Origin: an uncultured Leptospirales bacterium
GTDB taxonomy: Bacteria > Spirochaetota > UBA4802 > UBA5550
Length of the DNA: 64,000 bases
Direction of reading: 5' to 3'
NCBI GenBank assembly: GCA_964529415.1
Contig: CAZGWD010000002.1
Location: 222,089-286,088, forward strand
The notes under the pieces are model-generated. The model did no database searches and had not been told where the DNA came from. It saw only the letters and a list, made by a program, of their open reading frames with translations. The position numbers and the translations under genes were made by a program. Of the stretch, positions 25,149-42,723 are shown in pieces; positions within the stretch are counted from its first letter, which is position 1, and each line of letters begins with the position of its first letter.

Positions 25149-26978
25149 GTGAAAATGAAAATTATACTATTTCTTCTGATGATAATAGCTGCCGCATCGA
25201 AACCGCTGCTGTCCCAGCCTGTAATCATTTCCGATTCTGCTGAAAATTACAGTTTATGGGACCACGTATATATATTTGTAGATAAACAAGGGGATTTTCC
25301 CCTGGAAAAACTGATTAATGCTGATTGGGTTAAAAATGACAGAAAAATGATCCAGTTCGGAATATCAGGCAATACATACTGGTTTAAATTTACAGTAAAT
25401 AACAGGCTTTCAAAAAATCTGAAATTCTATCTCGACACTAATGATACACAGACGGAAATTCTTGAACTGTATCAGTATGATAAAAACGGCATGAAACTGC
25501 TCCAGAAAGCAGGAAGATATCACCCTGAATCATTCAGAAACTGGAACAGGCCCGAAATTATAATTACTCCGCCATCCGGTGAAACTGTTTACTTCCTCAA
25601 AGCGCAAAGCAGTTCTTATATTACATTTGACCTTATTTTGAGAACGCCGATTGACTTTTATAAAAGCATTGCGCGGTCTGCCATTTTTTACGGCGCGTAT
25701 TTTTCAATTTTAATAGTAATGATTTTATACAACCTGCTGCTTTTTTTCGGACTCAGAAGCAGAACTTATGCACTTTATGTTCTGTATCTGTTAGCTATTT
25801 TCGGACAGATGTTTTTCGGGGAAGGTTTCGGGGTGCTTTTTCTGAATGAGGGATACAGGTCAGTATATTCGGTAATGGTATTAAATACAGCTCTGCTGTT
25901 CATGTCTTCTTTTTTTGATAACAGGAAAAAAAATCCCGTTCTTTATAAAATCACATATATTCTGATTGCGGTTACAACACTTTACGGAGCGGTATCATTT
26001 TTTATACAGCCACATAGAATTGACTTTTTCATCACCGGCAGCATAGTTTCGCCTGCTGCTTTTATATTCGTTATAGTAAACTGCATAATTGCGCTGCGGC
26101 AGGGCAATCCGTCAGCAAAATATTTCATTATCGGCTGGTTCGGTCTTATGTTTTTCAGCAGCCTGTATCTGGGTGTTACATCGGAAATACTGCCTGCAAA
26201 TTTTCTGACACTTAACGGCCTGGCAATTGGTACTGTTTTCGAAACTGTAATACTGTCCCTTGCGCTTGCACAGCAGGTGAATACTTCCAGAAAGGAAAAA
26301 GAGGAAGCAGACAGGAAAAGCATTGATCATAAAAACAGGATTATTGCATCAATATCACGTTTTGTTCCAATGCAGTTTGTAAGCTTCCTTGGCAAAGAAA
26401 GCATCATTGACATCAAGCTCGGAGACCAGGTTCACAAGGAAATGACTATTCTTTTCTCGGACATCAGGTCTTTTACAAGTCTTTCTGAACATCAGACTCC
26501 GCAGGAGACTATAGATTTTTTAAATTCATATTTCATGAGCATTGGGCCACTCATAAGAAAAAACAACGGCTTTATCGATAAATACATTGGTGATGCGATC
26601 ATGGCTTTATTTCCCAATAAAGTAGACGATGCAATAATGGCTGCAGTCAACATGATTGAGCAGCTGCATGAGTACAACAAGATCAGAGAATTAACCGGCC
26701 AGGAGCAGATTAATATCGGCATAGGTATTCATACAGGTAATCTCATGCTTGGAACAATCGGCGAGTCAAGCAGGATTGAGGCAACAGTAATTTCTGATGC
26801 AGTAAATACTGCATCGAGGCTTGAACATCTGAATAAAAAATTAAACACCAAGATACTCATTTCAAAGGAAAGCCTGGAAAAATCCGATCGCCGTTCAGAA
26901 TTTAATACAAGAAAGATCGGTCGGGTTGCAATAAGGGGAAAGGAAGATCATTTGGTTGTTTATGAAATATTAACTTGA
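25149..26978 (+). CDS. 7TMR-DISM receptor fused to a class III adenylate/guanylate cyclase
   Basis: Signal peptide, 7TMR-DISMED2-like ectodomain (GNTYWFKFTVNN), 7 TM segments, and a cyclase domain FSDIRSFTSLSE...GDAIMALF. Confidence 0.8.
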   Translation: MKMKIILFLLMIIAAASKPLLSQPVIISDSAENYSLWDHVYIFVDKQGDFPLEKLINADWVKNDRKMIQFGISGNTYWFKFTVNNRLSKNLKFYLDTNDTQTEILELYQYDKNGMKLLQKAGRYHPESFRNWNRPEIIITPPSGETVYFLKAQSSSYITFDLILRTPIDFYKSIARSAIFYGAYFSILIVMILYNLLLFFGLRSRTYALYVLYLLAIFGQMFFGEGFGVLFLNEGYRSVYSVMVLNTALLFMSSFFDNRKKNPVLYKITYILIAVTTLYGAVSFFIQPHRIDFFITGSIVSPAAFIFVIVNCIIALRQGNPSAKYFIIGWFGLMFFSSLYLGVTSEILPANFLTLNGLAIGTVFETVILSLALAQQVNTSRKEKEEADRKSIDHKNRIIASISRFVPMQFVSFLGKESIIDIKLGDQVHKEMTILFSDIRSFTSLSEHQTPQETIDFLNSYFMSIGPLIRKNNGFIDKYIGDAIMALFPNKVDDAIMAAVNMIEQLHEYNKIRELTGQEQINIGIGIHTGNLMLGTIGESSRIEATVISDAVNTASRLEHLNKKLNTKILISKESLEKSDRRSEFNTRKIGRVAIRGKEDHLVVYEILT

Positions 26979-27353: not shown

Positions 27354-27566
27354 ATGAAAATAACACTAAACGGGGAATCAAAAAGTATAGATAAGCCATA
27401 CAAATCTCTTCTGCACTTGTTAAAAGAAAGCGATGTGCAGAACCCTGATCTGGTTTCCGTTCAGCTAAACGGCCAATTTGTTGAAAAGTCATTATTTGAA
27501 TCAACAAATATCAAAGAAAATGATGAAATTGACTTTTTATACTTTATGGGCGGGGGTGCTTCATGA
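27354..27566 (+). CDS. ThiS/MoaD-fold sulfur-carrier protein (HcyS/CysO-like) with a C-terminal extension beyond Gly-Gly
   Basis: 70-aa beta-grasp-sized protein ending ...FMGGGAS. It is translationally coupled to the sulfhydrylase and sits in an operon with an E1 and a JAMM protease. Confidence 0.7.
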   Translation: MKITLNGESKSIDKPYKSLLHLLKESDVQNPDLVSVQLNGQFVEKSLFESTNIKENDEIDFLYFMGGGAS

Positions 27567-28795
27567 ACGGATTTACCACCAGGGCTGTTCACGGGTTTTC
27601 TCTGAAAAAAGATCCTCATGGCTCGCTTAGGATGCCGGTGTATGACAATGCTGCTTTTGAAATCGGCAGCTCAAGAGACCTTGAACTTGCCTTTGCCGGT
27701 AAAAAAGCAGCTCACGCCTATTCCCGGATAACCAACCCGACAGTAGAAGACTTTGAACAGAGGGTCCGGATTCTCACAGGCGCATTTGGTGTAATTGCTG
27801 TTTCCTCAGGCATGGCAGCAATAACAAATACTATAATGACACTTGCCCAAAAAGGCTCAAATATTGTTACTTCGCGATTCCTTTTCGGTCATTCCATTTC
27901 GCTTTTTGAAACTACTCTTAAACGCTGGGGCCTTGAAACCCGTTATGTTGATATGCTTGATCTTTCTGCAGTTAAAAATGCAATAGATGATAAAACAAGC
28001 CTCATATTTCTTGAAGTTATAACCAATCCGCAGCTGGAAATAGCAGATTTAAAAGCCATATCATCTGCTGCATCTGATAGAAATATACCTGTGGTACTTG
28101 ACGGCACTCTCACAACTCCTTACATGATCCGTTCCAAAGACTTTGGCATTGCAGTTGAAATAATTTCCAGCACAAAGTACATGTCCGGAGGCGCAACTTC
28201 AGTTGGCGGCCTGATAATAGACAATGGAATTTTCAACTGGAGTAAATCTCCGCTTCTTGCAGATGATGCTGTACGAGTCGGTCCTGGTTCTCTCATCATG
28301 AGGCTGCGGCGCGAGGTTTACCGCAATTTCGGCGCCTGCCTCTCTCCGCATAATGCATGGCTGCAGGCACTGGGTCTCGAAACAATGGCTCTCCGGATAG
28401 AACGAAGCTGCAAAAACGCCCTTGCCCTTGCAGTATTTCTAAAGGGCCATACTAAGATAAAAAGCGTCAATTATCCCGGTCTGCCGGATTCCCCATTTCA
28501 TGAAATTGCTCAGCGCCAATTCAACAATCTCTTCGGAGGAATTTTGACATTTGAACTCGAGGGCAAGAATGAAAGTTTTCAATTGATGGATTCGCTCCAG
28601 CTGATAAAACGCGCTACAAATTTAAACGATAACAAATCACTGATAATCCATCCGGCTTCAACCATTTTTGCTGATAATACGATTGAGGAAAAAGCAGGAA
28701 TGAAGGTGAGTGAAGGACTAATCCGGCTATCTGCAGGAATTGAAGACATTGATGATATAATAAACGACCTTAAACAGGGACTGGAAAAATTATGA
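27563..28795 (+). CDS. metY: O-acetylhomoserine/O-acetylserine sulfhydrylase (MetY-type, Cys/Met-metabolism PLP enzyme)
   Basis: TRAVHGF...RITNPTVEDFEQRV...SSGMAAI and the PLP-lysine region SSTKYMSGG; 410 aa. Confidence 0.8.
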   Translation: MNGFTTRAVHGFSLKKDPHGSLRMPVYDNAAFEIGSSRDLELAFAGKKAAHAYSRITNPTVEDFEQRVRILTGAFGVIAVSSGMAAITNTIMTLAQKGSNIVTSRFLFGHSISLFETTLKRWGLETRYVDMLDLSAVKNAIDDKTSLIFLEVITNPQLEIADLKAISSAASDRNIPVVLDGTLTTPYMIRSKDFGIAVEIISSTKYMSGGATSVGGLIIDNGIFNWSKSPLLADDAVRVGPGSLIMRLRREVYRNFGACLSPHNAWLQALGLETMALRIERSCKNALALAVFLKGHTKIKSVNYPGLPDSPFHEIAQRQFNNLFGGILTFELEGKNESFQLMDSLQLIKRATNLNDNKSLIIHPASTIFADNTIEEKAGMKVSEGLIRLSAGIEDIDDIINDLKQGLEKL

Positions 28796-29607
28796 GAGAA
28801 TTTACAGAAGATCAGCTTGAAAGATACAGCCGCCACATTTTATTGAAAGATGTTGGAGTTGAAGGACAGGAACGCATCATGAATTCCAAGGTGCTTATTA
28901 TAGGAGCCGGCGGACTCGGAGCTCCTGCAGCCCTTTATCTTGCAGCAGCCGGCGTCGGCACTATTGGAATAGCTGACGGGGATGATGTTGATCTTTCCAA
29001 TCTTCAGCGCCAGATAATTCATTTTACTGAAGATGTCGGCACGTCAAAGGCAAATTCCGCTGAAAATAAAATACGCGCATTAAATCCGGATGTAACAGTA
29101 AAAACCTACCATGAATTTGTGATGGCCCGCAATATCCGCGGCCTGATTCATGGGTATGATTTTATTATAGACGGTACTGACAATTTCGCAACAAAATTCC
29201 TTATCAATGACGCCTGTGTAATGGAAAATATTCCATACTCTCATGGCGGTATATTGAAATTCACCGGCCAGACCATGACAGTTATACCTCACGCTTCTGC
29301 CTGCTATAGATGCGTTTTCCAGGCTCCGCCTCCCAAAAATGCAGTACCTACCTGTTCACAGGCCGGAGTTCTTGGAGCAATAGCAGGAATGCTTGGAACC
29401 ATACAGGCTGCTGAAGCGCTGAAATACGTGGCAAAAATAGGCAAACCTCTTACAGATTCGCTTTTAACATTTGATGCACTGGGCATGGATTTCAGAAAAG
29501 TTCCGTTACGCAAAAGGGATAATTGTCAAATTTGCGGATCTTCTCCGACAATTTTCCAACTTGCAGACGAAGAACAGGCTGCCTGCGATCTTAAAACCAA
29601 AGCATAA
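28792..29607 (+). CDS. ThiF/MoeB/HcyF-type E1-like adenylyltransferase (no rhodanese domain)
   Basis: LIIGAGGLGAPAALYLAAAGVG nucleotide-binding motif and CxxC zinc motifs (CYRC, CQIC); 271 aa. Confidence 0.85.
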   Translation: MREFTEDQLERYSRHILLKDVGVEGQERIMNSKVLIIGAGGLGAPAALYLAAAGVGTIGIADGDDVDLSNLQRQIIHFTEDVGTSKANSAENKIRALNPDVTVKTYHEFVMARNIRGLIHGYDFIIDGTDNFATKFLINDACVMENIPYSHGGILKFTGQTMTVIPHASACYRCVFQAPPPKNAVPTCSQAGVLGAIAGMLGTIQAAEALKYVAKIGKPLTDSLLTFDALGMDFRKVPLRKRDNCQICGSSPTIFQLADEEQAACDLKTKA

Positions 29608-29617
29608 GGAGAATGAC

Positions 29618-30025
29618 ATGCTGCGAATAGCTAAAACAGTAATAGACGGAATGATATCGCACTCAAAAAAAGATGCACCAATAGAGGCTTGCGGTTATTG
29701 CGCTGAGTCAAGCGGCATAATTGATGCCTGGTTTCCCCTGACCAATACAGACGGCTCTCACGAGCATTTTTCGCTTGATCCGGCAGAGCAGTTTGTCTGC
29801 ATAAAAAAAATCAGGTCTCAGGGCAGGAGGCTTGCTGCTGTTTATCACAGCCATCCTGAAACTCCATCCCGGCCTTCTGCAGAAGATATAGCCCTTGCAG
29901 CAGATCCTGACATTAGCTATGTGATCGTTTCACTTGCAAACAATGAATCAACTGTTAAGTCATTCAAGATACGGAACAGCATTGCTGTTGAGGAATCGAT
30001 TGAGATAACAGGAGATATCAGATGA
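29618..30025 (+). CDS. JAMM/MPN+ metalloprotease (Mec+/HcyD-like)
   Basis: E..(ACG)...HSHPETPSRPSAEDI JAMM motif. The start was set to the ATG at 29618, which follows an AGGAG and the ThiF stop. The track ORF's upstream part overlaps thiF. Confidence 0.8.
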   Translation: MLRIAKTVIDGMISHSKKDAPIEACGYCAESSGIIDAWFPLTNTDGSHEHFSLDPAEQFVCIKKIRSQGRRLAAVYHSHPETPSRPSAEDIALAADPDISYVIVSLANNESTVKSFKIRNSIAVEESIEITGDIR

Positions 30026-32355
30026 CATCATACGAAATTCCAGTCACCCTTGCAGGTGAAATCAACGATCTTGAAAAATATATTGAGGCATTTGCCAGCA
30101 ATAAAATATCAGACACTGAACTTAAAGCAAGACGGGTTCCTTTCGGGATATACGAGCAGAGAACAAAAGGAACATATATGATGCGGGTCAGATGTTCAGC
30201 AGGGATTATTACACCTGGTCAGCTTTTACGCGTATCAGAGCTTTCCAAGAAGTTCACACCTGGAATTCTTCATATTAGCACCAGGCAGGAAATCCAGATT
30301 CATGACGTAAAGCTGAATGATATTGTTTCTATTTTAAATGAATTATTACGTGCCGGATTATCAACCAGAGGCGGCGGAGGAAACACTGTCCGCAATATTA
30401 CTGCATCATGGGATTCAGGCATTTCCAAAAACGAGGTTTTCGATGTTCATCCCTACGCAGTCGCTCTTACAACTAAATTGACAGCATTGCCGAATTCATG
30501 GCTGATGCCGCGAAAATTCAAGATCGCTTTTTCAAACAATCCGGATGATACAGCATTTGCAACTGTTACAGATGTTGGATTCATTGCAGCTGAAAAAAAC
30601 GGCGTGCACGGATTCAGGGTATATGTAGCTGGAGGACTCGGCAGAATGCCTGAAAGAGGCCATCTGCTTCATGACTTTATTCCTGCAGGCGAATTTTTTG
30701 CTGTAGCTGAATCAGTAAAGCGCCTCTTTTCTATTTACGGTAACAGAAAAAATAAACATAGCGCCAGATTAAGATTTCTCTGGAAAACTCTTGGACGCGA
30801 AAAATTTACAGAAAAATACAACGAAATCAGGACTGACCTGCAAAAAAATGAAATCACATCTCTTCCGGTGATTCCAATTAAAAATGAATCCGTCAGGCAT
30901 ACAGCAGCAGTTTCCGGATCTGTATTATCATCTGAATTTGATTTCTGGAAAAAATATTATGTATATGAACAAAAACAGGCAGGCGCAGTTTCAGTTAAAA
31001 TCCCGATTCAATCCGGCATGATAAGCGCAGACAAAATGATTTTACTTGCAAAACACATTGAAGAGTATGGCGAGAATACAATCCGGTTTACATTAGACCA
31101 GAACATTACTCTTCGCAATATTCCTGAAGCGAATTTAGAATCTCTCTTTTCAGTTATAAAAAAAATCACCGGTCTTGCTGTCAAGGCTCCCTTTTTTGGA
31201 AATGCCGTTGCCTGTGCAGGAGCAAGCACCTGCCAGCTCGGTATCTGTTTATCGCGCGGTGCTCTCAATGCAGTATATGACCGTCTGCTATCATCAGATA
31301 TTGCAGCGGATACTCTTGCAGGGATAAAGCTTAATATTTCAGGATGCCCAAATTCCTGCGGCCAGCATCAGATTTCAGATATAGGATTCTTCGGCAAAGC
31401 ATCACGCATGGGAGAGCATTCTTATCCTGCATATTCTATTGTTGCCGGTTCCAGAATTTCAGCTGACAAGACTGTGCTTGCAGAAAAAATAGATGAAATA
31501 AGCGCTCATGACCTGCCGGTATTTCTGGAGGATATCTTCAGGGAGTATGAAAAGAGCGCAGCAAATTATAATTCATTCACAGATTATATTGAAGCGGAAG
31601 GAAAAGATGCTATAAAAAAAACAGCCGGTTCATACAGGCCTATACCGGATTTTGCTGAAAATAAAAATTACTATTTCGACTGGGGATCGGAAACAAAATT
31701 CTCCGTTACAGGACGGGGAACCGGCGAATGCGCTTCAGGTGTTTTTGATATTATCGATATAGACAGGAAGCATATGGAATCCCTTGAAAAGTCAATAGAA
31801 TCATCCCCGACAGAAGATTCCGTTTATGCGCTTGTTCTGGCTGCTTCAAGAATGCTTCTTGTGACCAGAGGCATTGACACTTCATCTGAAAATGAAATAT
31901 TCTCTGAGTTTAAAAAGCAGTTTATAGAATCCGGTCTGGTTGGAATTCATTATTCTGAAATTATAGATAAAGCAGCCAGCAATGACAGGAGCGGTCTGTT
32001 TGCTGCCAGAAATTCAGTTTTATCTCTCTCTCAGGATATGAATAAATTATATGCAACACTTGATGACTCATTGCAGTTCCATACCGCACATGCATTAAAA
32101 ACAGAATCCCTGGAAAACAGGAATCCGCCTGTTCCGGATCAGACTAAGGATCTTAGAGGCGTTGCCTGCCCTATGAATTTTGTTAAAACCAAAATAGCTT
32201 TATCCTCAATGAAATCCGGAGAACTGCTCGAGGTACTTCTTGATAACGGAGCGCCGATAGAAAATGTTCCAAAATCCGTGGAACTTGAGGGTCATAAAAT
32301 AGCGGCGCAGGAACCAAAAGACGGATTCTGGTCTGTTCTGATCAGGAAGGCCTGA
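30022..32355 (+). CDS. Ferredoxin-type sulfite/nitrite reductase (siroheme-[4Fe-4S]) fused to a C-terminal TusA-like sulfur-relay domain
   Basis: Nitrite/sulfite-reductase half-domains and the cluster-ligand Cys motifs CAGASTCQLGIC and GCPNSCGQH. The C-terminus reads LRGVACPMNFVKTKI...GELLEVLLDNGAPIENVP (TusA/SirA-like, conserved Cys). An uncharacterised ~150-aa segment lies between them; 777 aa overall. Confidence 0.75.
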   Translation: MTSYEIPVTLAGEINDLEKYIEAFASNKISDTELKARRVPFGIYEQRTKGTYMMRVRCSAGIITPGQLLRVSELSKKFTPGILHISTRQEIQIHDVKLNDIVSILNELLRAGLSTRGGGGNTVRNITASWDSGISKNEVFDVHPYAVALTTKLTALPNSWLMPRKFKIAFSNNPDDTAFATVTDVGFIAAEKNGVHGFRVYVAGGLGRMPERGHLLHDFIPAGEFFAVAESVKRLFSIYGNRKNKHSARLRFLWKTLGREKFTEKYNEIRTDLQKNEITSLPVIPIKNESVRHTAAVSGSVLSSEFDFWKKYYVYEQKQAGAVSVKIPIQSGMISADKMILLAKHIEEYGENTIRFTLDQNITLRNIPEANLESLFSVIKKITGLAVKAPFFGNAVACAGASTCQLGICLSRGALNAVYDRLLSSDIAADTLAGIKLNISGCPNSCGQHQISDIGFFGKASRMGEHSYPAYSIVAGSRISADKTVLAEKIDEISAHDLPVFLEDIFREYEKSAANYNSFTDYIEAEGKDAIKKTAGSYRPIPDFAENKNYYFDWGSETKFSVTGRGTGECASGVFDIIDIDRKHMESLEKSIESSPTEDSVYALVLAASRMLLVTRGIDTSSENEIFSEFKKQFIESGLVGIHYSEIIDKAASNDRSGLFAARNSVLSLSQDMNKLYATLDDSLQFHTAHALKTESLENRNPPVPDQTKDLRGVACPMNFVKTKIALSSMKSGELLEVLLDNGAPIENVPKSVELEGHKIAAQEPKDGFWSVLIRKA

Positions 32356-32597: not shown

Positions 32598-33311
32598 ATG
32601 ACTGCAGAAATAGAAAAATATAAAGAGGAAGTAAGGAATCTGAATGCAGAGGCAATAATTGCCTGGGCTCTGGACACATTCGGGCAATCCAGACTGGTTC
32701 TTGCCTCAAGCATGAGTGCCGAGGACCAGTTGCTGACGCATCTGCTTCTATCCTACAACAATCAATCACGGATATTTACCCTTGATACCGGAAGGCTTTT
32801 TCAGGAGACTTATGATACCATGCAAAAAACCATAGAACGCTATAATTTCTGTTACGAAATTTATGCACCTGAAAACAGTGCTGTTGAATCCCTTGTTGCT
32901 GTACACGGTCCGAATCTGTTTTATAAAAACGTTGAGCTTAGAAAAAAATGCTGTACTGCAAGAAAGACGATCCCCCTGCAACGTGTTCTTAAAACTGCGG
33001 ATGCATGGATTTGCGGACTACGAAGGGACCAGGCTGTAACACGGGATTACATAGAACCGGTTGAGTTTGACCATGAGAATAAACTATTCAAAATAAATCC
33101 ACTTTACAATTGGTCTGAACAGATGGTTTGGGATTCTGTTAAAAGTCTCAGCATCCCCTATAATCCCCTGCAGGATAACGGGTTCCGCAGCATTGGTTGC
33201 GCTCCATGCACACGGGCAATTGGCAGGAATGATGATGTCCGTTCAGGAAGATGGTGGTGGGAAGATCCGGAACACAAGGAGTGCGGATTGCACGCCAAAC
33301 CAAAAACGTAA
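32598..33311 (+). CDS. cysH: Adenylyl-sulfate (APS) reductase, thioredoxin-dependent, Fe-S type
   Basis: PAPS/APS-reductase fold with the cluster cysteines KKCC and CAPC plus the catalytic ECGLH motif; 237 aa. Confidence 0.85.
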   Translation: MTAEIEKYKEEVRNLNAEAIIAWALDTFGQSRLVLASSMSAEDQLLTHLLLSYNNQSRIFTLDTGRLFQETYDTMQKTIERYNFCYEIYAPENSAVESLVAVHGPNLFYKNVELRKKCCTARKTIPLQRVLKTADAWICGLRRDQAVTRDYIEPVEFDHENKLFKINPLYNWSEQMVWDSVKSLSIPYNPLQDNGFRSIGCAPCTRAIGRNDDVRSGRWWWEDPEHKECGLHAKPKT

Positions 33312-33349: not shown

Positions 33350-34243
33350 ATGGAAACTAAAATGGATAACTTAGAAAAACTTGAATCAAAAAGCATTTAT
33401 ATTCTACGGGAAGCATACAGGGAATTTAAAAACCTATGCATGCTCTGGTCTATAGGCAAGGACAGCACAGTTCTGTTATGGCTTGCGAGAAAAGCTTTTT
33501 TTGGACATGTGCCGCTGCCGCTTGTGCATATTGACACACATTTTAAAATTCCCGAGATGATTGAATACCGCGACAGGCTCGCACTCGACTGGAATCTTAA
33601 CATGGTTTACGGAGAAAACAGCGAGGCGCTGAAAAACAAACTTACTTTTCCGGATAAAAACGCAGACCGCCTTACCTGCTGCAAGAATCTAAAGAGCGAG
33701 GCTCTCAAGCATACTCTTTCAGGAGACTGGCCCAGATACAGGATGGATCATGCAAAGCGCGAATATGTGCCTGATTCAAACAGGGAACCATATACCGGAG
33801 TAATAGTGGGTGTCCGGGCTGATGAGGAAGGAAGCCGTTCAAAGGAGAGGTACTTTTCTCCGCGCGACAGGGAGAATGAATGGAATGTCGGCGATCAGCC
33901 TCCGGAGCTATGGAATCAGTTTAAAACTGATTTTGCGCCAGGCACGCACCTTCGCATACACCCCCTTCTTGACTGGACCGAACTAAACATATGGGAGTAT
34001 ATCGAAAGGGAAAAGATCCCTACAGTATCTTTATATTACGATCAGGGGACTGGCAAACGGTACAGATCACTCGGTTGCTACCCATGCACAAATTCAGTTG
34101 AGTCCGGCGCAAAAAATGCTGCGGATATAATTCTGGAGCTGAAAAGCGGAAAATTTGCAAACATAGCAGAACGTTCAGGCCGAGCACAGGATAAAGAAGA
34201 TGGCGGCGGATTGGAAGCACTCAGAAAAGAAGGATACATGTAA
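33350..34243 (+). CDS. cysD: Sulfate adenylyltransferase subunit 2
   Basis: PP-loop [18 protein letters not shown]; 297 aa. Confidence 0.9.
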
Positions 34244-34342
34244 ATTAAATTTAACAGCAGGCAGATGTGATGATTAACAATACCGATGAATCTTTTTAAT
34301 CATTAATCATCAGCCAAATTATTGCAGATAGAGGAAAATACA

Positions 34343-36130
34343 ATGCGTGAACAGATGAATATAGTAGTAGTAGGACATGTTGACCACGGCAAAAGCACTG
34401 TTATAGGAAGACTACTCGCTGATACCGGCTCGCTTCCTGAAGGAAAACTTGAGCAGGTAAAGCAGACCTGCGAGCGGAATGCACGGCCGTTTGAATATGC
34501 TTTTCTTCTCGATGCCCTTAAGGATGAACAGTCCCAGGGTATAACAATTGACACAGCAAGATGCTTTTTTAAATCCGCAACGCGCGATTACATTATCATA
34601 GATGCCCCAGGGCATGTGGAATTTCTTAAAAACATGATCAGCGGAGCTGCCCGCGCTGAAGCTGCGCTTCTTGTTATAGACGCTAACGAAGGAATCCAGG
34701 AAAATTCAAAACGCCACGGTTATCTTTTGTCCATGCTTGGCATTAAGCAGATTGCAGTGCTTGTAAATAAAATGGATCTTGTCGGCTACAGCAAAAAAGT
34801 TTTTGAATCAGTATGCGGGGAATATGATCTGTTTCTTTCAAAACTTGGATTGCGTCCGGCTGCCTATATACCAATAAGCGCGCGCGATGGCGAAAATCTG
34901 ACAAATGCTGCTGCTGCAATGAAATGGTATAGCGGCAATACAGTTCTTGGCCACATTGATAATTTCACCAGACAGGATGATATCTCTCACAAGCCGTTCA
35001 GATTTCCGGTGCAGGATGTTTACAAATTTACTGAAGCCCTTGACGACCGCCGCATAATTGCAGGTACAGTTGAAACCGGAACAATATCTGTTAATGATAA
35101 AGTCATCTTTCACCCATCCGGTAAAAGATCAGAGATTGTATCGATTGAAGGATTCAATGTGCCGACGCAAACATCTGCCGGTCCGGGTGCAGCAACAGGC
35201 TTTACAATCAAAGATGAGCTGTATCTCCAAAGGGGTGAAGTAATGTGCAGAATTGATGATGAACAGCCTGCAGTCTATTCCCGTTTCAGGGCAAATGTAT
35301 TCTGGATGGGGAACTCACCTATGGTCAAGGGAATAAAATATAAACTTAAAATCGCGACAGCGCGGGTATCAGTCCGGCTTGTTAATATTATTTCAAGCAT
35401 AGATGCAACCGACCTGAGCACATCTTCCGGCAAGCAGCAGATAGACAGGCATGATGTTGCTGAATGCATTTTCGAAACTACAAGGCCGATCGCCTTTGAT
35501 AATATCTCAAACATACAATCCATGGGCAGATTTGTAATAGTCGACAACTATGATATTGCCGGAGGAGGAATCATCACTAATAGCGAAAGCAGCGATGAAG
35601 CGCTTTTTTCAGAACAGATAAAAAAAAGGGAACAGGAGTGGGACAAGGGTTTTGTTACAATCAATGACAGGGAAAACATGTTCAAGCATAAAGCCAAATT
35701 CATTGTTCTTACAGGAACCAAACGCAGCAATGATATTGCCAAACATCTCGAGCGAACGTTATTCAGCAAAAACCATATCTCCTATTACCTGAGCCTTGCA
35801 AATCTGGAAGGCGGTCTTGACAGCGATGTTGTTGATGAGCAGGACAAACGGGATGAGAGGATCCGCCGTCTTGGAGAGCTTGCCCGTATTTTAACGGATG
35901 CAGGAACAATTTTCATTACAGCCATCACTGATGCAAATTCATATGATCTGGATATTTTATCAAGGCTGACATCTCCAAATGAGTTCCTGCATGTTTCTCT
36001 CGGCAGAGAGGTTGAATCAAGCAATGTCAATCACCTTTCACTCGATGAGGACTCCCCTGCTGAACAGCTGACCGGGGCCATTCTTCAGAGTCTGGCCATG
36101 CAGGAAATCATACCCGAGTATTCGATATGA
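34343..36130 (+). CDS. cysN: Sulfate adenylyltransferase subunit 1 (GTPase) with a C-terminal degenerate APS-kinase-like domain
   Basis: [10 protein letters not shown]1 motif, DAPGH and NKMD. The C-terminal ~150 aa resemble APS kinase ([25 protein letters not shown]) but lack the GxxGxGKS P-loop (LTGTKRSND). The start is the ATG at 34343, after GAGGAAAA. Confidence 0.85.
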
Positions 36131-37287
36131 AATCATTTATGCCAGTATGCCTCAATGTCGCAGATTCACGTATTGTGATAATCGGCGGCGGCAAAGTAGC
36201 CCTGCAGAAACTGCAGACAATAATATTATTTTCAGATAAAATTTCTGTATACGCCGGTACTATTCTTGATGAAATTAAAGAACTCAATGTAAGCTGCCAT
36301 GAAAAAGAATACGCTTCTGAATACATTGAAGATGCAATGCTCGTATATGCCTGTACTGACAATGCAGCTTTAAATAGAAGGATTCTTGATGATTGCCGCA
36401 AAACAGGGACTCCCGCCAATATTGCTGATGCGCCGGAACTTTGTGATTTTATATCTCCGGCACTTTTTAAAAAAGGAAACATGAGTGTGGCAGTAAGCTC
36501 CAACGGTGAAGATGCAAAAAAATCTGTAGCGTGGAGGAACATGTTAAGGAGATTTCTAAGCGGCGTTTTACAAAAAGAATCTATTGCTCTGAATTCAGCA
36601 GGAAAAGTGTGGCTTGTCGGAGCCGGGCCTGGTGATCCCGATCTTCTAACAATTAAGGCAGATAAAATCCTCTCCATGGCTGATGTCATTTATTTTGATG
36701 ATCTCCTTGATGACTCCTTTCAAAAACGTTATTCAGCGGAATTTGTGTATGTCGGAAAACGAAAAGGCAGCAACTGCATAACCCAGGAGGAAATCAGCGA
36801 ACAGCTTTATCAGGCTTCAAAATCAGGAAAAATAGTTGTGAGACTCAAGGGAGGAGATCCGCTGATCTTCTCCAGAGGCGGAGAGGAGCTTGATTATCTG
36901 CAGAGCCGGGGAGTTAAAGTTGAGGTTGTCCCGGGAATAAGCGCGTTTCAGGCAGCAGCTGCATCCCAGAAAATACCTCTCTCCCACAGGGGCATATCCA
37001 GAACAATTGGTATTGCATCCGGCCACTATGCCAAAGACGATGATATCCCGGCACTTGCAGCTGACACTGCTGTTTATTATATGGCTTCAACCAAACTAAA
37101 GGAGCTGCAGGCATCTCTTCTGCGCGGAGGAAGAAGCCCTGAAATTCCGGTTGCCCTTATAAGAAATGCAAGCCTCCCTGATGAACAGGTCTGCAGAACT
37201 ACTTTAAAAGATATGGCAGATATAACCATGGCCTCGCCTCTTATAATAATTATAGGGAATTCTGCAAATAATGCCGGTTTTTCCTGA
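36127..37287 (+). CDS. cysG: Siroheme synthase (precorrin-2 dehydrogenase/sirohydrochlorin ferrochelatase N-domain plus uroporphyrinogen-III C-methyltransferase C-domain)
   Basis: N-terminal [14 protein letters not shown] Rossmann fold; C-terminal [22 protein letters not shown] signature; 386 aa. Confidence 0.85.
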
Positions 37288-40122: not shown

Positions 40123-42723
40123 ATGGTGGCGGCAATGAATCAATTCATACAGGATCTGCTAAAAAAAATCAAAATGAACCGTTTTTTTAATCCTGCAATT
40201 GCCATTGTCTGCTTAATTTTAGTTCTTTTATTCAGCTTCACAAGTCCCTACTCCATTCTGAAATTGACTCTGTACAATATCAATTTCCGGTTAAAGCCTG
40301 CAACTCCCCAGCTGAATTTTTTAACGCTTATTGACATTGACGATTTAAGCCTCAACAGCATGGGCCAGTTTCCATGGCCGAGACATTATTATGCTCAGGG
40401 AGTTGACACGCTTGTTGAAGCCGGCATCAGACAGACTATATTTGATATTCAGTTCATGGATAATTCAGAACCATCTGTTAACCGTGATTTATATAAAAAA
40501 CTTTTTGATAAAACTTCTGAAAGAGAAACCGTCAGCCGCGATGATCTGAAAGGAGTCCTCATTGATAATGACAAAGTCCTTTCTGCATCGATTAAAAAAG
40601 CCAAAGGTGCAATAATTCCATATTCATTCAGCCATGCAAAAATTCCGGATCTTATAACTGATAAAAAAATAAAGGCTGAAAGGGATAAGGCGCATCAATA
40701 CTTCCTCGCCAAAGCATCAATCCCGGTTCCGAAAGACAGGATCAGGGAATTTGAAAGTCTTGCTGACAGAACAAGACTTCAGCTTGCGCATCCGATTCCG
40801 TCTGTAATCAACAGCGCTGAACTATTCGGCTATGTTGATGCTGACACAGATGACGACGGTGTACGCAGAGATATCCGGCTCGCAAGAGTGTTCGAAGGGA
40901 ATATTTATTTCAATATGGGACTTGTGATGGTTATGAATCTGTGCGATGTGAATATGGAATCTGTTGAAATTTATCCCGGCAAAAACATCATTTTAAAAAA
41001 TGCCATAGATCCCCGGACATATACAAAATCAGACATTGTTATCCCGATAGACGCTAAAGGCAAGATGCTAATCAACTGGTCTGCAAAAGAATATATGTCT
41101 GATTTTAATCATATACCATTTTTTGCCCTATTCGAATACCCGCGCGTGAGAGACATTGCATACGAAATATTTGACGCCATGGAATCTAAAAGCGGAAACA
41201 ATGAACGAACAGGGCTTTCCACAGAACATCACTCCCTGACCAGCGAACTTGCTCAAATTACAGACAAGACCCGGAAATACGATAAATATATTAAAATCAG
41301 AAAAATCGAAAACCGGCTGACTGAAATTGAAACAGGCTTCATGAATGAACTGAAAAAGAACACTGAGCTTCTGAACCGATTTGCATCCGATACAGGACGA
41401 AAACCCGAGGACCTGCTTACAGCCATGAAGATAACAGTTGAAACCGAGAAACTAAAGGGGCATTCATGCATCATCAGCATGACAGCAACATCATCTAATG
41501 ACTTCAGTCTTACGCCTTTGTCGTCTCATTATATGATGCCCGGCAAATATCCGAATATAGTAAATACAATTCTCCAGGGAAAATTCATTCACAGAGTTCC
41601 GGAATATCTGAATATTATATTGATGCTGCTCATTGCTGTCGGCGCCGGGTTCATAATACCAAAATTCAGCTCAAAAGCCGGTGTTTTTACATTTGTCGGT
41701 ACATTGATCGGAGTAAATGTTCTGATCATGCTTTCGTTTATTTTTGGAAACATCTGGTTTGATCAGCTGGGAATTTCTCTTGCTGTGCTACTGCCTTCGC
41801 TTTCATTAATAGGTATAAAATTTATCGGAGAGGAAACAGAGAAACGTTTTATCAAGTCAGTGTTTTCAAGATACCTCTCGCCGGATGTAATCAATGAGAT
41901 CATAAAAGATCCTGAAAAGCTTGCTCTTGGAGGCGAAGAGAGCGATATTACAATTTTCTTTTCAGACATAGCCGGATTCACGTCAATTTCGGAAAAACTT
42001 AATCCAACTCAGCTTGTTACTCTTCTAAACGAATATCTTACAGAGATGACTGATATAATTCTTTTAAATAAAGGCACCATTGACAAGTATGAGGGTGATG
42101 CAATTATCGCGTTTTTTGGTGCGCCTTTTCACTATGAAGATCATGCCGTGAAATGCTGTCTTGCGTCTATTGACATGCAAAACAGAATCAGAGAACTGAG
42201 CAAAATCCGCCGCTCCCGGGGACAAAGCGAGTTTTTCACCCGCATGGGAATAAACACAGGGCGTGCTGTAGTTGGAAACATGGGATCACGCACCAGACAG
42301 GATTACACCATGATCGGTGATGCAGTTAATCTTGCGGCAAGGCTTGAAGGTGTCAACAAGGTCTATAAAACCGCTGCCATGATAAGCGAGGCAACTTACG
42401 AAAAAGCAAAAGACCATGTTGAAGTCCGCAAGCTTGACACTATCCGCGTTGTCGGAAAAAATGAACCGATAGTTATATACGAACTTCTTGAGAGAAAGGG
42501 AAAGCTCGATGATCAAACCCGTGATTTGCTTGATAAATACTACAAGGGACTTGATTCCTTCAATGACCGCGACTGGAAAGGAGCGCAGAAACATTTCAGG
42601 GATGCGCTGAAGATTAAACCTGAAGACGGTCCAAGCAATCTCTATGTTGAAAGATGCACTGAGTTTCTGAAACAGCCTCCTTCAAAAAACTGGGACGGCG
42701 TGTATAAGATGAAGAGTAAGTGA
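40123..42723 (+). CDS. CHASE2 sensor fused to a class III adenylate/guanylate cyclase with a TPR-like tail
   Basis: N-terminal TM, CHASE2 periplasmic region (GYVDADTDDDGVRRDIRL), three TM segments, and a cyclase domain ITIFFSDIAGFTSISE...GDAIIAFFG; 866 aa. Confidence 0.8.
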   Translation: MVAAMNQFIQDLLKKIKMNRFFNPAIAIVCLILVLLFSFTSPYSILKLTLYNINFRLKPATPQLNFLTLIDIDDLSLNSMGQFPWPRHYYAQGVDTLVEAGIRQTIFDIQFMDNSEPSVNRDLYKKLFDKTSERETVSRDDLKGVLIDNDKVLSASIKKAKGAIIPYSFSHAKIPDLITDKKIKAERDKAHQYFLAKASIPVPKDRIREFESLADRTRLQLAHPIPSVINSAELFGYVDADTDDDGVRRDIRLARVFEGNIYFNMGLVMVMNLCDVNMESVEIYPGKNIILKNAIDPRTYTKSDIVIPIDAKGKMLINWSAKEYMSDFNHIPFFALFEYPRVRDIAYEIFDAMESKSGNNERTGLSTEHHSLTSELAQITDKTRKYDKYIKIRKIENRLTEIETGFMNELKKNTELLNRFASDTGRKPEDLLTAMKITVETEKLKGHSCIISMTATSSNDFSLTPLSSHYMMPGKYPNIVNTILQGKFIHRVPEYLNIILMLLIAVGAGFIIPKFSSKAGVFTFVGTLIGVNVLIMLSFIFGNIWFDQLGISLAVLLPSLSLIGIKFIGEETEKRFIKSVFSRYLSPDVINEIIKDPEKLALGGEESDITIFFSDIAGFTSISEKLNPTQLVTLLNEYLTEMTDIILLNKGTIDKYEGDAIIAFFGAPFHYEDHAVKCCLASIDMQNRIRELSKIRRSRGQSEFFTRMGINTGRAVVGNMGSRTRQDYTMIGDAVNLAARLEGVNKVYKTAAMISEATYEKAKDHVEVRKLDTIRVVGKNEPIVIYELLERKGKLDDQTRDLLDKYYKGLDSFNDRDWKGAQKHFRDALKIKPEDGPSNLYVERCTEFLKQPPSKNWDGVYKMKSK

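Follow-up and report, generated by a model that had tools for sequence, protein, structure and literature searches.

A sulfite reductase fused to an orphan domain and a TusA-like domain in a predicted protein-thiocarboxylate homocysteine locus of an uncultured Leptospirales bacterium

Introduction

The closest described system to the locus analysed here is the protein-thiocarboxylate methionine pathway of Wolinella succinogenes, which has been reconstituted (Krishnamoorthy & Begley 2011, as cited in passages of PMC5764234 and PMC6225789) and whose O-acetylhomoserine sulfhydrylase corresponds to the PDB entry 3RI6 (PMC11568248). In its passages on operon class 4e, the comparative study of Iyer, Burroughs & Aravind 2006 (PMC1779556) had described linked genes for a ThiS/MoaD protein, a JAB protein, an E1, SirA and sulfate assimilation, with Wolinella and Geobacter among the examples. 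According to these passages, the E1 of such operons always lacks a rhodanese domain and SirA/TusA is always present and predicted to be rhodanese-like, and they conclude that the ThiS-like protein receives its sulfur from sulfate or sulfite. Here we analyse a 64,000-nucleotide stretch of DNA from an uncultured Leptospirales bacterium (contig CAZGWD010000002.1, positions 222,089 to 286,088; hereafter the window), and in it a gene encoding a sulfite reductase (SiR) that is followed, in the same polypeptide, by a middle domain without known relatives and a TusA/SirA-like domain. A survey of related loci sharpens the question of how six-electron-reduced sulfur gets into protein thiocarboxylates when neither a rhodanese nor a cysteine desulfurase takes part.

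Results

The locus and the Wolinella pathway

The open reading frame at 30022..32355 on the plus strand starts with ATG and encodes a 777-residue protein. It lies in a compact operon on the same strand, in the order ThiS-like carrier, MetY, E1, JAB, SiR-TusA, DUF2061, CysH, CysD, CysN and siroheme synthase (Table 1), in which the stop and start codons of ThiS and MetY, of MetY and E1, and of JAB and SiR overlap. The window MetY matches 3ri6 with an E-value of 8.9e-142 and 476 bits, and the next entry among the solved sulfhydrylases and lyases reaches at most 279 bits. The chain sequence of 3RI6 was rebuilt from a printed alignment and its genomic locus was then traced. The protein P0269 is 100% identical to the reconstructed residues, and its locus reads DUF2061-CysH-CysD-CysN-ThiS (69 aa)-ThiF (272 aa)-JAB (130 aa)-Sir (764 aa; NIR_SIR twice and TusA)-siroheme synthase, with MetY divergent. 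This Wolinella-type Sir and the window protein are 41% identical from end to end over all three modules, and the alignment spans the motifs GRGVGECSAG of the middle domain and GVACPMNFVKTK of the TusA domain. The Wolinella-type carrier ends in FMGGGA, which we take to be 'HcyS-Ala', the form whose terminal alanine is reportedly removed by HcyD.

The window carrier is likewise capped and accompanied by a JAB protein, its MetY is of the 3RI6 type, and its rhodanese-less E1 stands beside a Sir of the same architecture. On these comparisons the locus is predicted to encode the HcyS/HcyF/HcyD/MetY/Sir protein-thiocarboxylate homocysteine pathway, with a Sir orthologous to that of Wolinella. The two loci share the gene set, the three-module Sir with both cysteine motifs, the capped carrier, the rhodanese-less E1, JAB, DUF2061 and siroheme synthase; they differ in gene order (the Wolinella cluster puts the sulfate-activation genes first and has MetY in divergent orientation), in the carrier cap (AS in the window, A in Wolinella), in the degenerate APS-kinase-like tail of the window CysN, and in lineage. 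Sulfite, rather than nitrite, is the predicted substrate of the reductase, from the presence of CysH, CysDN and siroheme synthase in the operon and from the orthology to Wolinella Sir.

A preliminary description of this DNA, made from the sequence alone, had proposed that the tethered TusA domain couples sulfite reduction to thiocarboxylate formation in a way not documented in the model systems. The last point does not hold, because the same fusion in the Wolinella locus means that the model system already has it, and because the class 4e passages of PMC1779556 predict SirA/TusA as a rhodanese substitute. The window gene, as an orthologue from a characterised pathway, adds little by itself, and the idea was sound but anticipated. 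What goes beyond that description is the recognition of the middle domain as an orphan module with an invariant cysteine, a rare exchange of TusA for rhodanese, and JAB-SiR-TusA triple fusions.

The sulfite-reductase core

Two stretches within residues ~44-540 are matched by each of the Pfam families NIR_SIR (E 2.1e-39) and NIR_SIR_ferr (E 2.7e-31), and the two bit scores, 134.9 against a gathering score of 27 and 107.6 against 24, place the core in the NIR_SIR superfamily. The cysteine pattern that binds the cluster and bridges it to siroheme, C-x5-C followed by C-x3-C, is present as C398/C404 (CAGASTC) and C442/C446 (CPNSC), as had been noticed beforehand. These four residues, together with Cys716 of the TusA domain, do not vary across 91 aligned homologues of only 45-52% identity, and the Arg/Lys residues of the anion pocket are conserved. 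Solved relatives have 536-591 residues. With a core of ~540 residues, the window protein is ~235 residues longer than a plain ferredoxin-type SiR or nitrite reductase (NiR), where an excess of about 200 had been estimated. The whole protein reaches none of the NCBIfam equivalog cut-offs (229 bits against 523-594), and no NCBIfam model spans the middle region.

With the 91-sequence alignment as input, AlphaFold2 gave a model with a mean pLDDT of 89.5 and a pTM of 0.82. The best PDB match of the core fold is the Mycobacterium tuberculosis (Mtb) NirA structure 1zj8 (E 1.6e-32, TM (target) 0.77), and plant NiR and maize SiR are similar. The active-site loop at residues 115-125 (window 30364-30396), T-R-G-G-G-G-N-T-V-R-N, is invariant in the clade and modelled with a pLDDT below 50; its segment RGGGGNTVRN has a far higher glycine content than the anion-binding loop found at this place in plant NiR or E. 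coli SiRHP. A further cysteine, C409, lies five residues past the cluster ligand C404 and is near-invariant.

The TusA-superfamily domain

Residues 708-776 match the Pfam family TusA (PF01206) over profile positions 2-70 of 70, with an E-value of 1e-21 and 76.9 bits against a gathering score of 28.6; 1jdq and 3lvj are the sequence matches in the PDB. The invariant Cys716 (codon 32167-32169) lies in the motif ACPMNF, which is CP-x-N and not CP-x-P, and the earlier reading of this domain as TusA/SirA-like with a variant motif is thus upheld. The domain scores closer to YedF and TM0983 than to E. coli TusA, with a weak match to YeeD/TsuB as well. It stays below the NCBIfam equivalog cut-offs of YedF (41.2 bits against 79), TusA (20.9 against 78) and YeeD (19.2 against 147.5), and is classed by these scores as a member of the TusA superfamily that is not an orthologue of YedF, TusA or YeeD. 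Structure prediction, which the preliminary description had proposed as a check, gives a TusA fold: the predicted domain superimposes on E. coli TusA (3lvj_C) with a TM-score of 0.87 and an r.m.s.d. of 1.7 Å over 74 columns. The order of strands and helices assigned by DSSP in residues 707-775 (β-α-β-α-β-β) fits the two-layer α/β fold of TusA, with the conserved cysteine at the opening of helix 1.

An orphan middle domain with an invariant cysteine

The segment between core and TusA domain, which had been described as having no obvious family, is a helical orphan module of roughly 150 residues. Residues 541-700 have no Pfam match even at E <= 10, and a profile of the domain against PDB sequences returned no matches other than chance-level ones to adenosylhomocysteinase (E 0.16). 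In the AlphaFold2 model, the segment begins with a Gly-rich loop of lower confidence (residues ~555-571), continues with helices from 572 to 678 and ends in a linker (residues 689-700) that is disordered (pLDDT ~39), while the domains that flank the linker are modelled confidently. The Gly-rich loop carries Cys570 (codon 31729-31731) in the motif GRGxGEC[SA]xG. A separate model of residues 536-700 (pLDDT 84) has no significant match among PDB folds, the top matches consistently being HEPN or nucleotidyltransferase C-terminal helical bundles with E-values of 0.46-1.4 and TM-scores of 0.34-0.55. The domain was not assigned to the HEPN superfamily, since the Rx4-6H motif is absent (the conserved segment is R610-MLLV-T-R-G, without a histidine) and the fold E-value exceeds 0.4.

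A profile made from 19 sequences of the domain (residues 541-700) was run against 1.84 billion representative proteins. Only 439 of these matched at E <= 1e-3, and the domain nearly always occupies positions ~540-700 of proteins of 760-816 residues. Among the family sequences, the middle-domain cysteine is conserved in 260 of 260 and the TusA cysteine in 233 of 233. The 179 proteins with a complete N-terminus comprise 172 with core, middle and TusA domains, one with a rhodanese in the place of TusA and six that end after the middle domain, at least one of which (P0192) is cut by the end of its contig. Five proteins that seemed to consist of the middle and TusA domains only (P0246, P0188, P0221, P0183 and P0176) first looked like an independent module and were not relied on: the contig of P0246 is full of fragmented genes, so that frameshifts are likely, and P0183 and P0176 start inside the preceding SiR helix.

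Spread and linkage of the fusion

A search of a collection of 5.8 billion proteins was read for architecture on its best 120 matches, all of which combine SiR and TusA at a query coverage of 98-100%. A relative is also encoded in 484 genomes in a scan with one genome per species. At the best 80 of these loci, gene content was determined by tblastn of the window operon proteins; the 80 loci come from more than 15 phyla, and the isolate Telmatobacter bradus DSM 23630 is among their sources. The core, the middle domain and the TusA domain are present at all 80 loci, so that the fusion, whose conservation in relatives had been left as a question, is a constant of these loci. JAB is present at 75, ThiF at 72, ThiS at 59 and MetY at 58, followed by CysH (36), CysD (33), DUF2061 (28), CysG (28) and CysN (25). 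The gene order is mostly ThiS-MetY-ThiF-JAB-SiR, and the orthologous carriers end in FMGGG plus one to three variable residues. The closest genome matches to the window SiR are only ~51% identical and come from an uncultured Leptospira sp. and from metagenome-assembled genomes of Fibrobacterota, Planctomycetota and Calditrichota, among others, while one metagenome protein in ENA (P0001) is 93% identical. The SiR-middle-TusA fusion is real, ancient and common, and the extension is universal in this SiR clade.

Fusions with JAB and exchange of TusA for rhodanese

About 20 of the best 120 matches carry an additional N-terminal JAB domain and thus read JAB-SiR-TusA, as confirmed by hmmscan for P0240. 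The fusions P0009, P0014 and P0240 have 866-960 residues, and fusions of ThiS with MetY (P0308 and P0361, 478-482 residues) occur in relatives. Read as Rosetta-stone evidence, both kinds of fusion hint that the whole pathway may act as one complex.

In one protein, P0226 (791 aa), a Pfam rhodanese domain (E 2.3e-11) with the active site CRTGRRS occupies the position at which TusA would be; P0253 is a shorter protein with the middle and rhodanese domains. A search with the middle-plus-rhodanese part found only two further clusters of this kind (P0253 and P0389), followed by ~85 E1 proteins in which ThiF/MoeB is fused to a rhodanese. The rhodanese of the SiR variant is 45-60% identical to these E1-fused domains. 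By this comparison, the C-terminal carrier domain of the SiR can apparently be replaced by the same kind of rhodanese that loads sulfur carriers in E1 fusions. The swap is rare; of the comparative evidence, it speaks most strongly for a rhodanese-like job of the TusA domain.

A 304-residue Roseivirga protein (P0397) combines the N-terminal domains of siroheme synthase (NAD_binding_7 and Sirohm_synth_M) with the same E1-type rhodanese, which suggests another link between siroheme or sulfite reduction and sulfur-carrier domains.

The operon and its surroundings

Table 1. Domains of the fused sulfite reductase and genes of the operon in the window.
Feature	Position	Strand	Remarks
Sulfite-reductase core, residues 1-540	30022..31641	+	two NIR_SIR_ferr/NIR_SIR repeats; siroheme-[4Fe-4S] ligands C398, C404, C442, C446
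Orphan middle domain, residues 541-700	31642..32121	+	Gly-rich loop with invariant Cys570, all-alpha bundle, disordered linker
TusA/SirA-superfamily domain, residues 707-777 and stop codon	32140..32355	+	Pfam TusA E 1e-21; invariant Cys716
ThiS-like sulfur-carrier protein (HcyS-like), 70 aa	27354..27566	+	Pfam ThiS E 6e-10; C-terminus ...FMGGGAS (stop), Gly-Gly capped
O-acetylhomoserine sulfhydrylase MetY, thiocarboxylate-using type	27563..28795	+	Pfam Cys_Met_Meta_PP E 3.9e-107; 3ri6 best PDB match
ThiF/MoeB-type E1 adenylyltransferase (HcyF-like), 271 aa	28792..29607	+	sole Pfam domain ThiF E 1.5e-82; no rhodanese
JAB/MPN metalloprotease (HcyD-like), ~135 aa	29618..30025	+	Prok-JAB E 1.5e-18; PDB 2kks E 2.4e-27
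DUF2061 small membrane protein, 76 aa	32358..32588	+	Pfam DUF2061 E 4.2e-20
CysH, APS/PAPS reductase	32598..33311	+	Pfam PAPS_reduct E 4.6e-43; CC...CxxC and ECGLH motifs
CysD, ATP sulfurylase small subunit	33350..34243	+	Pfam PAPS_reduct E 2.3e-35; position conserved in related loci
CysN GTPase subunit	34322..36130	+	GTP_EFTU E 6.4e-44; C-terminal partial APS_kinase match E 5.3e-8, P-loop degenerate-looking
Siroheme synthase (SiR cofactor supply)	36127..37287	+	Pfam NAD_binding_7 and TP_methylase

The E1, for which the absence of a rhodanese domain had been noted correctly, finds its best PDB matches in E. coli ThiF and MoeB. All of its seven cysteines are conserved among 70 orthologues; they form two CxxC zinc pairs, the loop residue C188 equivalent to C184 of ThiF, C142, and C265 in the C-terminal tail, which is present in 67 of the 70. 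The tail cysteine could, from its conservation, serve as a persulfide acceptor. For JAB, the ATG at 29618 is the likely start rather than the TTG at 29471. The two CysH motifs indicate an Fe-S enzyme of the APS-reductase type, and the sulfate pathway of the window probably runs via APS and not PAPS.

The DUF2061 gene lies directly 3' of SiR-TusA; its family, present at 28 of the 80 related loci, also stands at the head of the Wolinella operon. Rfam models detected no riboswitch upstream of the operon, and a scan for promoters and terminators was uninformative. The operon is flanked by genes for membrane-sensor adenylate/guanylate cyclases of the 7TMR-DISM type and the CHASE2 type at 25149-26978 (+) and 40123-42723 (+); the second cyclase is separated from the operon by genes for a FecR-like protein and an alginate-export-like porin. 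A 193-codon frame at 36108-36689 on the minus strand, antisense within the siroheme synthase gene, is probably not a gene.

Discussion

The locus can be read as a route from sulfate to homocysteine. By homology and context, sulfite would be made by CysD/N and CysH and reduced by the siroheme-[4Fe-4S] core, while the capped carrier (...GGGAS) would be trimmed by JAB to expose Gly-Gly and then adenylated by the rhodanese-less E1; MetY would use the carrier thiocarboxylate with O-acetylhomoserine, after which JAB would free homocysteine. The formation of a carrier thiocarboxylate that MetY then uses is known from the literature only for W. succinogenes. We consider it reasonably probable that the fused protein is the dedicated assimilatory SiR of this thiocarboxylate pathway, in which the extension passes reduced sulfur to the acyl-adenylate of the carrier by way of Cys570 and Cys716. 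The C-terminal extension would thus take up the reduced sulfur and bring it to the carrier acyl-adenylate on E1, and the sulfur would not simply be released. Tethered by a disordered linker of ~12-30 residues, the TusA domain would act as a swinging persulfide carrier through Cys716 and fill the role of the C-terminal rhodanese in MoeZ-type E1s, and the middle domain would provide a second invariant cysteine, Cys570 on its flexible Gly-rich loop, as the partner of Cys716. Because SiR yields sulfide (S2-) while TusA carries sulfane sulfur (S0), the simplest balanced scheme is a redox-neutral disulfide cycle. HS- from the siroheme would open a Cys570-Cys716 disulfide to give a persulfide on Cys716 of TusA; this persulfide would attack the adenylated carrier (carrier-CO-AMP) to form an acyl disulfide; and Cys570, or a cysteine of E1, would resolve the acyl disulfide to carrier-COSH and restore the disulfide.

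The near-obligate linkage to ThiS, ThiF and JAB, the invariant TusA cysteine, the JAB fusions and the rhodanese swap form strong comparative evidence consistent with a hand-off of sulfur to the E1/carrier pair, and direct transfer by the tethered TusA domain, as the preliminary description had envisaged, is plausible from such comparative evidence, although the transfer itself stays a prediction. A chemical rather than a passive role of the extension is suggested by its two cysteines, conserved without exception in the family, by the JAB fusions and the rhodanese variant, and by the disordered linker. Several observations weigh against the proposed relay. The product of SiR is sulfide, whereas TusA and rhodanese domains normally carry sulfane sulfur, and the disulfide cycle is a solution on paper only. 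In the 2011 reconstitution, bisulfide made by Sir reportedly attacks the HcyS acyl-adenylate, so that the reaction in vitro may do without a carrier domain. No gene for a ThiS-type carrier or an E1 lies next to the rhodanese variant P0226, and P0164, which ends after the middle domain, may be a real protein that does without TusA.

The redox mismatch and the reported bisulfide chemistry speak for a free-sulfide model, to which we give a low probability. The core would release HS-, which would attack the carrier acyl-adenylate at E1 non-enzymatically, and the middle and TusA domains would serve as a docking platform or scaffold near E1, carrier and JAB, supply another sulfur sink (Fe-S clusters, molybdenum cofactor or tRNA thiolation), or act as a product sensor. 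Related E1/carrier pairs form thiocarboxylate in a sulfide-dependent manner in vitro, and the 2011 work by Krishnamoorthy and Begley reportedly describes bisulfide made by Sir. A pure scaffold is, however, hard to reconcile with two absolutely conserved cysteines in proteins that are otherwise ~45% identical, or with the exchange of TusA for a catalytic rhodanese that keeps its CRTGRRS active site. That exchange is accounted for, as is the tethering of a sulfite-producing sulfurtransferase to a SiR, if the domain loads the outer sulfur of thiosulfate (or sulfur from a different persulfide donor) on Cys716 and frees sulfite for the fused reductase while the persulfide goes to E1 and carrier. 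Rhodanese is the classical thiosulfate sulfurtransferase, both sulfur atoms would be assimilated and no oxidant would be needed, and the proximity of the TusA domain to YedF and TM0983, with its weak YeeD/TsuB match, points in the same direction. Such an entry of sulfane sulfur is nevertheless improbable in our view: the operon holds a complete route of sulfate activation (CysDN, CysH) and no thiosulfate transporter, and neither the fate of the sulfide made by SiR nor the role of the middle-domain cysteine would be explained.

Equally improbable, though it would solve the mismatch of S2- and S0 directly, is a co-substrate role like that of DsrC, in which Cys570, Cys716 or both would enter the active-site channel and capture partly reduced sulfur at the siroheme, so that a four-electron reduction would end in a protein persulfide or trisulfide and not in free sulfide. 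Two invariant cysteines, the first on a flexible Gly-rich loop, the second on a tethered domain, and the unusually Gly-rich, clade-invariant active-site loop would suit this chemistry. The core, however, is a canonical monomeric assimilatory enzyme nearest to Mtb NirA and to plant NiR and SiR, and neither Pfam nor NCBIfam gave a DsrC/TusE match in the window protein, the DsrA/B matches being weak and confined to the core. The comparison with DsrAB-DsrC is a functional analogy only.

Returning to the relay through Cys570 and Cys716, its strictest form, in which enzymes of this clade never free sulfide and the Cys570 loop and TusA Cys716 constitute a built-in two-cysteine relay that picks up sulfur at or close to the siroheme and hands it, as a protein persulfide, to the carrier acyl-adenylate on E1, appears unlikely to us. 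If true, this would give assimilatory metabolism its own version of the DsrAB-DsrC principle, with the sulfur bound to protein all the way from sulfite to homocysteine. Channelling of sulfide bears on sulfide toxicity, on anaerobic methionine synthesis and on annotation, as these enzymes are currently named only 'sulfurtransferase TusA family protein' by NCBI. Searches of the literature for an SiR-TusA fusion already described, or for HEPN together with sulfite reductase, returned nothing specific, and we found no published account of the orphan middle domain and the invariant cysteine in it, of the interchange of TusA and rhodanese, or of an experimental test of the extension.

Compared with known systems, the window shares with operon class 4e of PMC1779556 the rhodanese-less E1, the SirA/TusA domain and the linked sulfite reductase, O-acetylhomoserine sulfhydrylase, PAPS reductase and ATP sulfurylase; the passages on this class list SirA as a component and do not describe the middle domain or its cysteine. 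In the E1-rhodanese fusions of the MoeZ/MoeBR type (for example CysO/MoeZ of M. tuberculosis) and in Uba4/MOCS3, a persulfide-carrier domain is likewise tethered near the step that forms the thiocarboxylate. In the window, in contrast, the carrier domain is a TusA fused to the sulfur-producing SiR rather than to the adenylating enzyme, and its sulfur presumably comes from sulfite reduction, not from a cysteine desulfurase. E. coli TusA, YedF, TM0983 and YeeD (TsuB) have the same fold and the same position of the catalytic cysteine, but whereas the stand-alone TusA proteins are of 9 kDa, the window TusA is a domain of an 86-kDa enzyme and has the motif CP-x-N in place of CP-x-P. The two-repeat fold, the four cluster cysteines and the Arg/Lys residues of the anion pocket are those of Mtb NirA/SirA (1zj8), plant NiR, maize SiR and E. 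coli CysI, and it is by the ~235-residue C-terminal extension and the Gly-rich RGGGGNTVRN loop that the window protein stands apart from these reductases.

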